From a virus: a stretch of 64,000 nt of DNA. Below, one piece after another: positions 2,926 through 59,238 of this stretch. The stretch is from IMG/VR virus record IMGVR_UViG_3300032163_000002, positions 32,001 through 96,000 of that record; one strand, 5' to 3'. A program made the translations under genes and the position numbers. Every line of letters begins with the position of its first letter. Position 1 is the first letter of the stretch. Under the pieces are notes generated by a model. That model was not told where the DNA came from, did not search any database, and saw only the letters and a program-made list of their open reading frames with translations.

Positions 2926-5900
2926 TCAGCCTGAGCTTTGAATTCCTCGGGAGAAGCAATTGAATTCCTCGGGAGAAGCAATCACGCTCAAGCAAAGCAT
3001 CGCGTTCTCAAGAAAACGCTCCATACCTAAGATATATTCCGGCATCGCGTCCTTCTCGTAGCTAAGCACTGAATTCTTGATGAGAAGGAGAAGCTCTTCT
3101 GGAGATTTCGGCTGTTGCACAGGTAATTTAACTGAAAAATGCTTGAGACCTTTCGTATAAAGCTCCCATGCACATGCTGCCATCATGATGTCTTTCAGAA
3201 GAAGATGCACTCCATGTAACTTGTCTGCGTGCTGCTTCTCGAATTTCCGCGCACGAACAGCTTCATCCCGAAGCTTCGGAACACACATATCAGCAAAACC
3301 ATGTAGAGCAAGATCCAGAAGTAATTGTTCCCACTCTTCATTCGTCATTCTTTTTTCGTCCATCACCGCTAATTCCTCACAATCTTCAACCCGCAACGCG
3401 GACACACGAAATAAGCTGGCGGCTCCACACCAGACAAAATTATTGTCGCTGTGCATCGCGGACAATACACATAAGTCGTATCTCGCGCTTCAAGAGCATC
3501 CGCAAATCGACACGACGGTTCCGGACATTTTCCTTCAACTAGCGGAACAAGCTGATGATTATGTTGATGTATCAACCGCATCTGACAAACCAGCTCTTTG
3601 ATGCCCTTTTGACGAGTCTGCTCCGTAGTCACGTTACACTCACCCCTTTCAAATCCGCAAGAGCCATCTCCTCTTCGATAATGGGAAGTTTCAATTTCTT
3701 TCGATTCGATATCCGGGTTTTAAGTGCGTGAATATTGAAAATCCACGACAAACGAAATTCTTTACCATCTCCAGCCACCCGCGCGAACCGCACCAATTTC
3801 GGAGCTTTATCCACAAGCCCCACATAAACGAGCGCATTCGGTACTTCCTCTTCCATCATCATCTCCTACTGAGGATGAGCGAGTATATATAGCCGCGTAT
3901 CCCGCTCTTCACGAACATGCTCTTCACTCGTAGCATCCGCTGCAATTTCAAAATAAACCTGACAAAGCTGATTTATCTCTTTCTGTTCTTCACGTAATCT
4001 GTACGCCTCATTCGCCTGCGTAACCAACGCATTTACATCGTTAATCACGTCAAGCGCTGTATGATCTTCAGGAACCGGATCATGCCGCGCCCCCGCGATA
4101 ATGAGTAGCACCTTACGCGCCGTCACTAGTTCAACGCGCGTCGTATCCCACTCACACTCCATGTTTGCCTTGTAACGATGCATTACCAGCAATGAAATCA
4201 AACCACCAAGGAAAACAGAAGAACCAATCCACACGATGACTATGAACGGCGTAGCGTTATCTATTACCTCAAAAAAATGAGTCATAATTTTTCCTTTTTC
4301 AACGTAGTAGCCGGACCAAGCAACGGGGGCACCTTCCCGGTTTTATATGCCTCAACAATATGATGCCCGACAGATTCTCCAACTGTGGAGCCGTCGGGGA
4401 GCATAATTTGTGCAAAAAATGCTTCGTCAAAAGTCTCAATATTGTCAGCAGCGCTCTGTAATTTCGCTTTGATCGCCAGCGCAAGCCCACGCCAGCGTGA
4501 GCGGCTCTCCTGCTCCCATGCCTTCTGCCAATCTCCCGGATTTCGTTTCGTACGACCCGTAGGTGTCTTTTTGAAGCATTGATCTTCCTTTACCGGAAGA
4601 GGCAAGATGAACTTGATTCGTCGATTTTGAAGCTCAAACTGAATAACCGCTGCGTCATTTTTCCAACCATAGACAAAAGCGGTTGCACCATATTTTGTCA
4701 GAAGCCCTTCGATTTCAGCGCGAGAGCGGTCAGAAGAAACAATCGTGGCAGCAGCGTAACGACGAAATCTCATTTCTCAATCCTCGCACAAGCTGCCCGA
4801 ATTTCTTCAATACGCACGTTTACGACTATATACCCATCGCGCCGATATTCTTCCACTGCCTCAGCCACTTCATGTTCTCTCCCCCACCAACATTCACACC
4901 CCCACACAACATCTCCATTGTCAAGCCGAAGTTTAGGGTTCGAGACAGAACTTTCTACCAAAAGCTTCGCCATCCAACCACAAGCTGTTAGGGGAATTTC
5001 ATCACCTTCATAAACTCCATACCCAAGAAAACGCACGATTTTTTGCTCACCGCCAGCACCAAGAATCGCACCGATACGTTCACCTGCTTTTTTCACTTCA
5101 ATCCGCCTCGGCATCATAAAACGGCCCGTTTGCTATAAAAGCCTTGTTTGCTTCAACCCAATGAGCCCCACGACGACCCTCTTCCGCCAAACGTTTTAGA
5201 GCAGCTTTTCCTTTCGTCCACCGAAGTATATCTTCAGCATCTTCATAACCGACCCTATTCACAGCCGCATCCAAAACCTGCATAGTTGCATAAAGCCCGA
5301 CACGAGCAAGGCGATCTTTCATCCGAACCAGATCCACGATAATCCGAACACGTTCTCGCTTCTCTTCCACGGTCAACGGTCGGCCTTTACCGGGAACCAA
5401 ATTTTCTTTTTTCATGAAAGCTCATCCATGCCCGATGCCTGCTCTTCGTCTTCAACCTCACCGGAAATACCTTCAACGAAGACCTCTGCCGATTCCGAAG
5501 TCTGCCCCTCAACCTTCGGCGCGGAAATCATCTTTCCGAGCTTTCCACAGGAACAGGTAATGACGTAGTGGAGCACGAAACCATAGAACGACCGGCGATA
5601 TCGAGAAGGCGTTCCGGGCTTGCCGTCACTGCGCGACGTGCGTTCAGAATCGGTCTCCTCGACCGAAAGCTTGTGCTCCTCACCCTCCGGATACGTGCCC
5701 ACTGTGTGCCCCTTGCAGTCTTCGGCATGATCATTCTCAGGATTGAAGTTCGCTTCCGTCAATTCCGTGCCGCACTGGTCGCAAGCATTGACGATACACA
5801 CTTCAACGGTCACATGCCCGTCTTCGTCAATGTCGATAGAATTGATTTCGGGTTCCTGCTCTTCAAACCCGACAAACTTATTGCAATCACCACAGCGTGC

Positions 5901-55908: not shown

Positions 55909-56601
55909 TTATTGAAGGTAATCGGCTAAGACGGCAGACATTGCCGGATCACTGCTAAGCGTCGGGGCTAACTGCCTGAACTCCGGAAGAGACCAGACAT
56001 AGTCACGAGGAAGAAGCCTGACTAAGAACGGATCTAAAAGAACATCCGATATCGTCTTCATATCTACACGCGATACCATGATGTTTTTGAGCGTAGCCTC
56101 ACCAGATTTCAAAATATTCTCCGGACACCGCGCGCCCTGAGACATTTGCACCCGACGGAGCCACGCTTTATACCGAGATACGCACCCAGCGTTGACACCT
56201 AAATACCGCCACGTCGGATAAGTCGTGGCGTAAGGTGTTGGCTTAACCCACTCGACAAATTGTGCTTGTAGAAAATGAAAAACGCTAATGTGCTTTTCCC
56301 CGCAGAACCGAAGAATAGCACAAATCGGTTTCCAAAGCTTTAGATTTTCAGCATGAATTCCATTACGCAACACACCCCGGTAATAAGTCGTAACAGAATG
56401 TTGTTGCACAAGTTTTTCATAAAATTGAAGGGCTTGAATAACCTGCATCCGGTTGAGACCTTCCGGATTTCGTAAATGAACCGAGGTCTCATACGCTAGT
56501 TTTCTCCGCTTTATTGTTGGGCCAGAGGAATTCTTGGTCTTCCCCGTCGTCATCATCGTATTGCTCCAACGATGCCGTAACAGGTTGCTGCTGTGCGACA
56601 C
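55909..56601 (-). CDS. Hypothetical replication-module protein
   Basis: 230-aa ORF between the SF2 helicase and DnaB; start codon uncertain. Confidence 0.7.
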   Translation of the reverse strand: MSHSSNLLRHRWSNTMMTTGKTKNSSGPTIKRRKLAYETSVHLRNPEGLNRMQVIQALQFYEKLVQQHSVTTYYRGVLRNGIHAENLKLWKPICAILRFCGEKHISVFHFLQAQFVEWVKPTPYATTYPTWRYLGVNAGCVSRYKAWLRRVQMSQGARCPENILKSGEATLKNIMVSRVDMKTISDVLLDPFLVRLLPRDYVWSLPEFRQLAPTLSSDPAMSAVLADYLQ

Positions 56602-58093
56602 CGCTCTCGTACACGGAAATGGTTGAGAAAATCTTCTCGTCTTCGTAAACCTTCAATCGCGCCTTGAAATGTTTGAGCAAATAAGGATTCGTCAAATCAA
56701 GAAAATCTATGACCTCAAGCGAATGCCCTCCTTCCTTGATACGAAGTCCGCGCCCGATCCGCTGCATCACCCGCACAAAGCTTTTTGTTGGAGCCGCAAG
56801 AATGACCACATCAAGATCAGGAACATCGGTGCCTTCATCAAAAATAACCGTGGAGACAAGAATTGAAAGCGCCCCGCTTCGAAGATCAGCTACGGCCTTG
56901 TTGACAATACTCCGGTAAGACACGGAAGCCATATCTTTTCGTGCAATGAAAATGGCAGGGGGGAGAGTCGGATCACCTTTTTTCAAAGCTACATATTCAG
57001 CTTCAAGATTCCGAACCAATTTAACGCTAAAGCCCCCGACGACCAGAACCCGCTTTCCAGTCTTCGCCCGCTCCACAGCAAGCTCCATGATCCTTCGGGA
57101 CCGGCCTTCATTGCCAATGATCAGGTAGTTCAGGGCCTCCCGCCAGTTGTAATGACTGCACCCTGCGGGCTCTGAGACCTCGTAGACGATCAACCCAGCC
57201 TGTGCCAGCTTACCTTGCCTCTGAAGCCGTTCAGGCGGAACATCGACCAACAGGGGGCCTGTGCAGCCCATCAGGACCAGATCCGTCTCCTCATCCTTCG
57301 TGAAGGGGGTGCCGGACATGCCGACTCTAACCTGAGCCGGACAAGCGTCGAGAATCGCCCTGAAGGTGCGATCACCCTTTCCAACCCGATGGGCTTCGTC
57401 AGCTATCACAACGCGACTCTCCCGTAGAAGAGACAAAACGTAGGGGTCTCTAACGTAGAGCCGGGAAGCCAGCGTGTCAATGCTCCCGATGAGAAACTTC
57501 CCCGGTTTGTTGGTCTCGGCCATGATGATGCCAACACGCTCAGATCCGAGAAACTCGCAGAATCGTTCGTAGGTTTGGTCCACAAGCTGTTGTCCATGAA
57601 CGAGTACAAGGGTCGGGACATCGAAAGCATGAGCTATCATCGCTCCCACAAGGGTCTTACCGCCCCCGGTCGCAATCCGAAGAACGCCACGCTGATCACC
57701 GGGGTAGTTGGCCCGGAGAACCCTCTTGACAGCGTCTACCTGATAGTCCCACGGAGTCAGTGACCCGAACGGCCCGGTAATGGGGTTGACGACGGGTAAG
57801 AACTCAAAACCTTCCGGCATGAAAAGTTCGACCGGAAATCCTGCTTTCGTGAGAGCTTCCGTAACTAAAGACAAAACACCTGAAGGAAATGCCCCTCCTG
57901 TACTTAACAGATGAAGCTTTCCATCCCAACGTTTCTGCTTATAAGCTGTTGTCCAGAAATAACCTTTCTTGTAGCAGGAGGTTACTTCGTCAACAATATT
58001 ACGGGGATATCGGCTTAGAAACCTCGCGCGCTGCGCCCCAACCAGAATGTTCATTTTTGTTCCAAGCGGAAGAGGAAGCTGCACAGCAGGCAT
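56489..58093 (-). CDS. SF2 DExH helicase (UvsW-like), leaderless
   Basis: WDG...L, DYQ, ATGGGKT, DEAH, SGTP, EG.D.P, Q.IGRGLR. Confidence 0.95.
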   Translation of the reverse strand: MPAVQLPLPLGTKMNILVGAQRARFLSRYPRNIVDEVTSCYKKGYFWTTAYKQKRWDGKLHLLSTGGAFPSGVLSLVTEALTKAGFPVELFMPEGFEFLPVVNPITGPFGSLTPWDYQVDAVKRVLRANYPGDQRGVLRIATGGGKTLVGAMIAHAFDVPTLVLVHGQQLVDQTYERFCEFLGSERVGIIMAETNKPGKFLIGSIDTLASRLYVRDPYVLSLLRESRVVIADEAHRVGKGDRTFRAILDACPAQVRVGMSGTPFTKDEETDLVLMGCTGPLLVDVPPERLQRQGKLAQAGLIVYEVSEPAGCSHYNWREALNYLIIGNEGRSRRIMELAVERAKTGKRVLVVGGFSVKLVRNLEAEYVALKKGDPTLPPAIFIARKDMASVSYRSIVNKAVADLRSGALSILVSTVIFDEGTDVPDLDVVILAAPTKSFVRVMQRIGRGLRIKEGGHSLEVIDFLDLTNPYLLKHFKARLKVYEDEKIFSTISVYESGVAQQQPVTASLEQYDDDDGEDQEFLWPNNKAEKTSV

Positions 58094-58099
58094 GGTTAA

Positions 58100-58128
58100 A
58101 ACTTACACCCGTAAGAGAAAAAAGTCAA
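58100..58128 (-). promoter_or_regulatory. Class B promoter TTGACT-17-TAAGTT with CTTAC-gggt-GTAAG
   Basis: Consensus match; 6 nt separate the -10 box from ATG 58093. Confidence 0.9.
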
Positions 58129-58137
58129 GAGATACCC

Positions 58138-58166
58138 TTGACAGTCAAACGTATTGAACCTAAGTT
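58138..58166 (+). promoter_or_regulatory. Divergent plus-strand promoter TTGACA-17-TAAGTT, lacking the palindrome
   Basis: Perfect -35, 17-bp spacer, same -10 as class B. Confidence 0.8.
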
Positions 58167-58171
58167 ACAGG

Positions 58172-58245
58172 CTGCTGCTGTGCTCGCTGGGCCGAACACC
58201 CTGCGCGTACGTTTCGCCCCCGGTGTCCACCGGGGGCGTTCTTTT
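58172..58245 (+). ncRNA. Candidate ~70-nt small RNA
   Basis: Bounded by the plus-strand promoter and a plus-oriented terminator; no ORF contained within it. Confidence 0.7.
58215..58245 (+). terminator. Strong intrinsic terminator
   Basis: cgcccccggtg/caccgggggcg inverted repeat followed by ttctttt only on the plus strand. Confidence 0.85.
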
Positions 58246-58249
58246 CTCC

Positions 58250-59238
58250 TCATGCCGTCTCCGACGACGAAACCACAGCTTCATCCAGAATCACTTCAAT
58301 TCCATAAACCTTACGAAAAAATTTCTCTATGTAAATCGAGTAAGGTAATCCAGATTCAAGAACGGCTCCAGCAGCATCCTGTGTCAGTAAAAGCTTTCCA
58401 TCATCACGCTGAAGAAGCTCGAAAAGGTTCAAGTCTTCGATATAAACAAGAAAGCTGGGGTGCTTTCCCTGTGTATGGACGATCCCTTCATTCATTTCCT
58501 TTGCAGCTTCTACCCGTTCCTCCACTGTTTTCATTTTTCGAATCTCAGCTAATGCTTTGTCATGTTCAGCATAACCGTCAGCATATACGGAATGCATTTC
58601 CCGACTAAGGACATTCGTTGCGTAAAGTGCTCCGAACATGCCTTCACTTCGATGCGACAGAACTTTTACGAGTCCAAGCACTTTTTCCATCTGCTCTACA
58701 ATGAGTTTCTGGTTAGCCTCAACTCTGGCAAGCCGTTTTTCAAATTCCTCTTTACGCTTTTCAGATTCCTCTTTTTCATCAGTAATAAGTTCGCGCTTAC
58801 GAATCGGCACTAAGCACCTCCATAAATAATTCCAACTTCACGTTCAGCCAATGTTCGCCATTTTCGAGCATCATTAGAATCAAAAGAGTTCAAACACTTA
58901 ATACGATTATGTTCCAACCCATAATTATACCAGTCAGACACCCTTTCCTCTTGTTTACACAAAATAACCCACGGTAGAGAATGAGAATAAGGTAATGCAG
59001 AAGACGCAAATCGAGTCAAGAACTGCTTCCGACTTTGCTTAAAAAACTTTCCCCCCTCTGGAAATACAACAGGCGGGCTACCCTCAACCGTAATAACAAA
59101 TTGATCATCCACATAAACCACAAACAACCAAAATGAATACATCTCGTGAAAACTATCACCGACTTTCGGGTTTTGCAGCGCATCAAGCGTCAACGTGATA
59201 AGTTCGTTCCAAGATATTTCTTTACCCTCTAATTCCAT
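58250..59238 (-). other. Two hypothetical genes (58250..58810, 58810..59238)
   Basis: Coupled ORFs. Confidence 0.7.

Follow-up and report, generated by a model that had tools for sequence, protein, structure and literature searches.

Background

The OOP RNA of phage lambda is a 77-nucleotide (nt) transcript that starts at the promoter pO, ends at its own intrinsic terminator and overlaps the 3' end of cII in cis (PMC12197685). Another lambda RNA, LPR1, acts on host genes (dnaN, for example) in a host that uses Hfq (bioRxiv 10.1101/2024.10.31.621285), and plasmid countertranscripts such as RNAII of pMV158 control rep genes (PMC4485353). Regulatory RNAs from large lytic phages outside the model hosts are few, and from uncultured ones there are almost none. 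Here we analyze a predicted small RNA (sRNA) gene in a 64,000-nt stretch of viral DNA (the window), which comprises bases 32001-96000 of the 141,027-bp virus record IMGVR_UViG_3300032163_000002 in IMG/VR, a genome with direct terminal repeats. The gene and its promoter occupy window positions 58138 to 58248 on the plus strand, next to an operon of replication genes that is read in the opposite direction. Coordinates refer to the window unless the genome or a related contig is named.

Judged from its layout and its conservation in related phages, the stretch is likely a real sRNA gene. The complete explanation that we favor, with a probability of roughly 0.45, is that this gene yields a non-coding RNA of about 75 nt which pairs in trans with the messenger RNA (mRNA) of the phage's own replication operon. 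A preliminary description of the locus had proposed an RNA of this type; its observation is confirmed by our analysis and its interpretation is partly supported.

Anatomy of the predicted sRNA gene

The unit sits in a 156-nt spacer between a gene for a protein of 186 amino acids (aa) and an SF2 helicase gene. On the plus strand a -35 box TTGACA (58138..58143) is followed, after a spacer of 17 bp, by a -10 box TAAGTT (58161..58166). The -35 box lies back-to-back with that of the helicase promoter, and both coordinates agree with those of the preliminary description. On the plus strand of the entire 141,027-bp genome, this promoter is the single occurrence of the pattern TTGACA-N17-TAnnnT. By chance about 0.5 occurrences are expected (an estimate), so the promoter alone is no proof. 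A generic promoter scan missed it, TAAGTT matching TATAAT at 3/6 positions. The same hexamer, however, is the -10 box of 11 near-identical minus-strand phage promoters, which were also detected as repeats, and is therefore usable in this host. Several of these promoters have an ATG 7-8 nt downstream of TAAGTT and thus give leaderless mRNAs. Because of this spacing the sRNA is predicted to start at 58173 or 58174 with the sequence UGCUGCUGUG.

The palindrome TTGACAGTCAA covers the sRNA -35 box and adjoins the helicase -35 box. The CTTAC-N4-GTAAG palindrome found in the 11 minus-strand promoters of the repeated class is absent from the sRNA promoter, in agreement with the earlier claim that it lacks their operator.

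From its inferred start to the end of the U-tract the predicted sRNA measures about 75 nt (58173..58248, plus strand). In a fold of the 76-nt sequence at -36.8 kcal/mol (z = -3.8 against shuffled sequences), the 5' end is free and is followed by an inner hairpin and the terminator. The 5' seed reads UGCUGCUGUGC-U-CGCUG (58173..58189, plus). It is followed by, and partly shared with, the inner hairpin (58179..58211, plus), in which CGC-U-GGG and CCC-U-GCG enclose a 7-nt loop, plus further base pairs. The terminator hairpin (58215..58238, plus) has a stem of 10 bp, nine of them G-C pairs, and a 4-nt loop; in a genome-wide scan it is the strongest perfect GC hairpin of the whole 141 kb. It begins 48 nt past the -10 box, so the hairpin of the preliminary description stands at a somewhat larger distance than the 40 nt or so given there. 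Likewise, the reported 11-bp inverted repeat exists as 11-nt arms round a 2-nt centre, and as RNA it forms the 10-bp stem with its 4-nt loop.

Directly after the stem the plus strand reads TTCTTTTCTCC, whereas the minus strand after the same hairpin reads GAAACGTACG and has no U-tract, exactly as first reported. Consequently, the hairpin acts as a one-way terminator for the plus strand in our prediction. Its U-tract TTCTTTTCTC (58239..58248, plus) ends within 2 nt of the stop codon of the upstream gene. Elsewhere in the genome, outside the window, a canonical gene-strand terminator (GCCCCCC..GGGGGGC followed by TTTTCCTTTT) lies at genome 20333-20354 on the minus strand, which shows that the phage does use U-tracts on its coding strand; a TTGACA-17-TATGTT promoter stands directly after it (whole stretch at genome 20267-20354, minus).

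There is no start codon at the predicted 5' end of the sRNA, and the sole plus-strand reading frame (58154..58348) reads through the terminator. A comparison with Rfam 15 gave no match at the gathering score in the window or the relatives; the best sub-threshold hit reached 17 bits against a gathering score of 45. Probably the molecule is an ordinary sort of regulatory sRNA that belongs to a new family.

Several other interpretations of single elements were tried and set aside. A minus-strand terminator call at 58142..58124 (GTCAAG..CTTGAC plus a T-run) is probably a by-product of the two back-to-back -35 boxes together with the T-rich spacer of the helicase promoter. On reading, the 156-nt spacer has no AT-rich stretch or repeated short motifs that would suit a replication origin or a primer role. 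Mimicry of a CRISPR (clustered regularly interspaced short palindromic repeats) repeat by the hairpin was considered; a terminator unit fully accounts for the T-run and promoter. For the sRNA promoters a LexA-type box was dismissed on its spacing, which is unlike the Bacillus consensus.

Conservation in related phages

Homologues of the helicase led us to contigs of four closer phages and of several more distant ones. The sRNA unit is found in three lineages: the window phage, the pair L009/L010, and L011. In all three phages the sequence (U)GCUGCUGUG is kept at the predicted RNA start. A perfect TTGACA, the 17-bp spacing and the form TAnnTT are kept in L009, L011 and also L012, with -10 boxes TATATT, TATTTT and TACATT, respectively. 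In every one of the three phages with the seed the T-run tracks the orientation of the unit, and in L009 and L011, too, the position of the inner hairpin allows a hairpin with a loop of 7 nt. This conservation of the whole unit strengthens the earlier proposal of a self-contained plus-strand sRNA unit divergent from the helicase.

L009 and L010 are the closest (helicase 70% identical; upstream gene homologous at 44%). The L009 unit has the same position and orientation as in the window, on the strand opposite to the genes. Both phages retain the promoter, CUGCUGUUGU, the hairpin and the terminator, and the RNA would begin (U)GCUGUUGUACCCG. The terminator stem of L009 is perfect and 1 bp shorter than that of the window phage, one C and one G having been lost, one per arm; it is followed by TTCTTTATTT. 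The upstream reading frame is extended by ten codons there, and its final 32 nt contain this hairpin. The hairpin is therefore kept as nucleic acid and not as protein. In the L009 sRNA promoter the spacer (L009:4643-4659) is taken up by CACAACATGTTGTG, a perfect 14-bp palindrome that is likely an operator; from this palindrome, the sRNA promoters may themselves be regulated.

In L011 (helicase 60% identical) the same order of promoter, GCUGCUGUGGGCGCUGG, hairpin, terminator and T-run is seen. Together with one more upstream base, GCUGCUGUGGGCGCUGG is identical to the window sequence at 18/20 positions and has the same distance from the -10 box. Here, however, the unit is inverted: it lies on the gene strand, after a non-homologous gene and about 650 nt upstream of the helicase. 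Since promoter, seed and T-run are inverted together, the unit behaves as an independent gene, and we consider this joint inversion the strongest argument that it is a gene of its own. The L011 sRNA promoter is also the sole promoter-like site ahead of the helicase operon, and read-through of the terminator may also feed that operon.

An analogous orphan unit occurs in L012 (helicase 58% identical) at 4290-4395 on the minus strand, opposite to the helicase. Its RNA would comprise about 50 nt followed by two hairpins and a weak T-run (total about 80 nt, -49 kcal/mol). The CUGCUG seed is absent, as is a matching site near the second gene of the operon, and a separate leaderless promoter of a leftward gene follows. 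L120 has no spacer at its helicase locus.

Further members were not obtained. When IMG/VR, the JGI metagenomes and the GTDB genomes were scanned for the promoter plus seed, the matches were chance ones in coding sequence only, and a pattern scan of 185,579 species genomes gave no homologue with sRNA promoter and seed. The terminator and seed patterns yielded nothing in the right context in IMG/VR, and BLAST with the unit against all fetched loci returned L011 only.

Where the window phage has its spacer, the maps of more distant relatives (helicase identity 48-49%) show an element of about 760 nt that is free of genes. One version is located at L014:4205-4965 (identical in L015, L016, L022 and L023) and a second at L018:583-1347 (the same as in L017). 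The two are 59% identical overall, with fully conserved islands between arms that show compensatory changes (GGAGGG..CCCTCC against GGTTGG..CCAACC, for instance); each strand has 30-35 two-sided compensatory pairs. Approximately 680 nt are enclosed by an invariant long-range pairing of 12 bp, and a hairpin with a T-run lies on the strand opposite to the helicase, abutting the upstream stop codon. The element has no match in Rfam even at E <= 1 and is absent from the genome of the window phage. On these comparisons it is a candidate for a new large structured RNA.

Candidate target in the replication operon

The first gene of the operon is the helicase, and the second overlaps its 3' end. The preliminary description had reported that bases 58167-58183 match 56580-56596 at 16/17 positions, with about 11 nt of the match inside the transcript. 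This match is real (two window sites with at most two mismatches, against 0.02 expected), and the transcribed part is 58173-58183. It was thought to make the RNA antisense to codons 2-7 of the second gene, read as the open reading frame (ORF) 55909..56601. That placement falls: the gene most likely starts not at GTG 56601 but at ATG 56556 (56554..56556, minus; MMTTG), the alternative that had been named beforehand as a refutation. The candidate target, CGGUG-UC-GCACAGCAGCA (56586..56603, minus; helicase codons V-A-Q-Q-Q), therefore lies at -47 to -30 from the start of gene 2, upstream of its GGAG box.

This start is suggested by a GGAG at 56564-56567, 7 nt ahead of the ATG, and by the alignment of MMTTG with MMPTMG in L011. 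The gene-2 call of L009 is truncated; an uncalled upstream ATG there gives a product ...LRNPDGCDRMEV, which resembles that of the window. In all three phages the start falls inside the acidic tail of the helicase, with overlaps of 68 (window), 50 and 32 nt. A structure model of the gene-2 protein is all-helical (predicted local distance difference test, pLDDT, 75), and no match to it was seen in PDB, Pfam or PHROG. Within the helicase frame there is also a promoter-like TTGACA-17-TAyGwT (57452-57480, minus; L009:5593-5621; L011:5596-5624). It is built from the conserved codons SIDTLASR...YV and could be an internal promoter for downstream genes or a mere coding by-product.

To rank possible targets, the first 18 nt of each RNA were compared with the phage's own sequence at non-self sites, on the gene strand and on a control strand; the whole 141-kb genome was covered for the window phage and 11.5 kb for L009 and L011. 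In the window phage the site at -47 to -30 ranks second (-28.3 kcal/mol; best on the control strand -26.4). The homologous site ranks first in L009 (-43 to -29; -29.4 against -28.0) and second in L011 (-46 to -31; -25.6 against -26.1). Seed and target have changed between the phages and still pair. In the window phage GUGC pairs with GCAC and CGCUG with CGGUG; in L009 GUACCCG pairs with CGGGUAC, including one two-sided change from G-C to A-U; in L011 UGGGC-GCUGG pairs with CCAGC-a-GCCCA. The L009 duplex has 15 contiguous pairs, 14 of them Watson-Crick and one G-U. As the variable parts differ among phages yet pair, the paired sequences are not simply inherited. In a matrix of three seeds by three targets, the best partner of every seed is its own target. 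Moreover, the motif CAGCAG occurs within 80 nt before the gene-2 start only in the window phage, L009 and L011, the carriers of the seed, and is absent there from L012, L013, L014, L017 and L120, all of which are without it (background frequency 0.3-0.5 per kb).

Local folds of the window phage and L009 put the candidate target within the apical region of a hairpin or beside it, a position that would suit a contact initiated at the loop. These folds do not show the GGAG box sequestered. Duplex energies of the whole sRNA with 28-nt probes did not discriminate.

A number of observations weigh against this target. Only 11 contiguous bases of the match lie within the predicted transcript, and 11-mers are at chance level in this genome, in which equal or longer matches exist elsewhere; one of these, on the control strand, is a 12-mer. 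The pairing of (CUG)n with (CAG)n involves sequence of low complexity. The L011 duplex consists of 4+5+5 pairs with an energy at background, and the control strand of the same phage contains a chance 15-nt match with one G-U. For the window seed a stronger non-self site is present at genome 8284-8323 (window -23716 to -23677, minus; -30.5 kcal/mol). The candidate target also lies in a translated frame, at least 18 nt upstream of GGAG and beyond the usual ribosome footprint. Finally, the family has three members, so that covariation is anecdotal, and since the phages are related the three coincidences of complementarity are not independent. Co-conservation of seed and target, a check proposed in the preliminary description, is seen in so far as complementarity recurs at a homologous site (ranks #2, #1 and #2) and CAGCAG accompanies the seed; n=3, however, with low-complexity sequence and single matches near chance. 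Overall, 56586-56603 in the replication-operon mRNA is a possible target of the sRNA, on which we would not quite place an even bet.

The preliminary description had also pointed to a 9-nt inverted copy at 58081-58089. It exists, as one of about 20 such 9-mers, which removes its significance. We rejected a function for it: in the helicase mRNA it has the same sense as the sRNA and cannot pair, and it was not seen at the helicase start of L009.

Proposed mechanism

In the explanation we favor, the primary sigma factor of the host would transcribe the sRNA from TTGACA-17-TAAGTT, against nearly all other genes. The RNA would fold one inner hairpin behind its free 5' end and stop at the strong intrinsic terminator. 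Its 5' end would then base-pair in trans with the replication-operon mRNA, inside the 3' end of the helicase. Pairing 30-47 nt upstream of the overlapping gene-2 start might alter ribosome loading at gene 2, or might direct an endonucleolytic cut at the junction of helicase and gene 2. The analogy for either is with sRNAs that pair ahead of a ribosome-binding site or within coding sequence. Both outcomes would shift the ratio of helicase to gene 2, the SLOG protein, DnaB and primase; translation might be repressed or activated, or a cut might be guided.

Alternative explanations

The alternative nearest to this mechanism accepts the sRNA gene, on equal evidence, and seeks its partners among host mRNAs or at another site of the phage; the helicase match would then be a by-product of CUG/CAG repeats and shared ancestry. 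It draws on the stronger seed site elsewhere in the genome, on the retention of (U)GCUGCUGUG even in L011, where the local duplex equals background, and on the precedent of lambda LPR1/PreS and similar phage sRNAs, which act on host genes (bioRxiv 10.1101/2024.10.31.621285). Nonetheless, it leaves aside that one homologous site ranks at the top in three phages through phage-specific pairs and that CAGCAG is missing from the relatives without seed, and the scanned species genomes offered no homologue with promoter and seed. We regard it as unlikely, yet as deserving serious attention. It is quite unlikely, in our view, that the unit works as a lambda OOP-like cis-antisense RNA or by transcriptional interference. 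Its transcription would then run against the 3' end of the upstream gene, and its RNA would pair perfectly with transcripts reading through into the helicase operon, so that these are cleaved or polymerases collide. The topology does fit, with a short terminated RNA opposite the genes and upstream of replication genes (PMC12197685); the L009 unit overlaps the final 32 nt of the upstream frame, and no gene-strand terminator with a U-tract is present between the upstream gene and the helicase promoter. The L011 unit, however, is co-oriented with the genes and antisense to nothing, behind an upstream gene that is not homologous to that of the other two phages. The overlap in the window ends about 2 nt short of the stop codon, and a purely cis role leaves the conserved 5' sequence unexplained.

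It might also be argued that there is no RNA gene at all, and that the hairpin is a 3' stabilizer or pause site of the upstream operon, or a site acting at the DNA level, with TTGACA being part of a regulator-bound palindrome. Indeed, TTGACAGTCAA is palindromic and stands beside the helicase -35 box, one promoter-like match per strand is about the chance expectation (as estimated), and the general promoter scan had omitted the TAAGTT promoter with its 3/6 agreement to TATAAT. This explanation becomes very unlikely in view of what the three phages share: a perfect -35 box, a spacing of 17 bp, TAnnTT, the seed at a constant distance, and a T-run on the promoter's strand, all of them co-inverted in L011. 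The U-tract never follows the hairpin on the gene strand, and the TTGACAGTCAA palindrome is not kept in L009 or L011. Hardly credible is a coding function, in which the spacer would encode a small basic protein of 42 aa on the gene strand (58125..58253), its ATG overlapping the upstream stop codon. Such an ATGA overlap is typical for coupled phage genes, and PASTAAACNLG in the window resembles PAGTTAGENIG in the same frame of L009. But the similar residues coincide with the -35 box, -10 box and seed of the opposite strand, and ahead of them the frame is shifted by a 7-nt indel in L009. Nor do the two frames agree in start codon or length, and that of L009 appears to run through the next promoter. 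The L011 counterpart is in a different frame and would oppose all other genes. The 42-aa minus-strand ORF was consequently rejected as a gene, its frame not being conserved in L009 or L011.

Genomic setting

Nearly all genes of the phage are on the minus strand, except in the region of about 100-110 kb of the genome. The closest isolated relatives of its helicase belong to SPO1-like Bacillus phages at approximately 28-34% identity; judged from this value, the source is a distant, uncultured relative of that group. A DNA sequencing run labelled 'sediment metagenome' contains the whole window, and no RNA run was listed for it. No similar DNA was found among 50,697 isolated phage records, and a search for transfer RNA and transfer-messenger RNA genes found none.

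The replication operon is ordered as helicase, a conserved second gene of unknown function, SLOG protein, DnaB and primase. Its first gene (56489..58093, minus; domains ResIII and Helicase_C) is preceded by the promoter TTGACT-17-TAAGTT with the CTTAC-N4-GTAAG palindrome (58100..58128, minus). The helicase ATG at 58093 stands 7 nt past the -10 box, which makes it the start of a leaderless mRNA. On the other side of the spacer, the 186-aa gene of unknown function (58250..58810, minus; stop codon at 58250-58252) faces the sRNA terminator with its 3' end. A homologue search with this protein returned itself only.

Significance

The locus offers a compact and clearly delimited predicted sRNA gene with two natural variants, one of them inverted; it also provides a defined candidate site, open to mutation, within the replication operon of the same phage. 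It raises the question whether the ratio of replisome proteins in a phage is set by an sRNA. A wider picture can be sketched tentatively, with more doubt than trust: a lytic, distantly SPO1-like phage would possess an sRNA dedicated to tuning its replication operon in trans, by pairing within the helicase frame shortly ahead of the overlapping start codon, with co-evolution of seed and target, a gene that can be flipped, and a spacer slot that is a conserved home for regulatory RNAs, as the structured element of about 760 nt in distant relatives might indicate. If the target fails, a well-supported but ordinary orphan phage sRNA remains.

Comparison with known systems

The enterobacterial sRNAs RybB and OmrA/B combine a conserved unpaired 5' seed, an inner hairpin and a Rho-independent terminator, and the predicted sRNA shares this architecture. 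Homology to them is lacking (no Rfam match), and they are cellular, whereas the predicted sRNA is encoded by a phage.

In its placement the unit recalls lambda OOP, also a short terminated RNA with its own promoter that is directed against the flow of early genes: both adjoin the replication genes on their upstream side and point towards the 3' end of the gene before them. This applies to the window phage and L009, and not to L011. Unlike for OOP, the overlap with the upstream gene is about 0 nt in the window, 32 nt in L009 and none in the inverted L011 copy, and the conserved 5' seed with a distant complementary site points to action in trans. No sequence similarity between the two was seen.

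A further parallel is RNAII of pMV158, likewise a small RNA with a terminator; its 5' tail, which is single-stranded, is proposed to bind the mRNA of a replication gene and to limit the translation of that gene (PMC4485353). Such countertranscripts are antisense within the rep leader, whereas the sRNA gene (58173-58248) lies outside the leaderless helicase transcript starting at 58093. The start of that mRNA is 80 nt from the sRNA start, on its other side, and the candidate site is 1.5 kb down the operon.

With lambda LPR1/PreS and DicF the RNA would have in common that a phage-encoded, base-pairing sRNA tunes replication-related expression, as proposed here. Its sequence is unrelated to theirs, and where LPR1 acts on host genes, the candidate target here belongs to the phage itself, namely to its replication operon. 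By its predicted mode of action the sRNA belongs with trans-acting phage sRNAs such as lambda LPR1/PreS.

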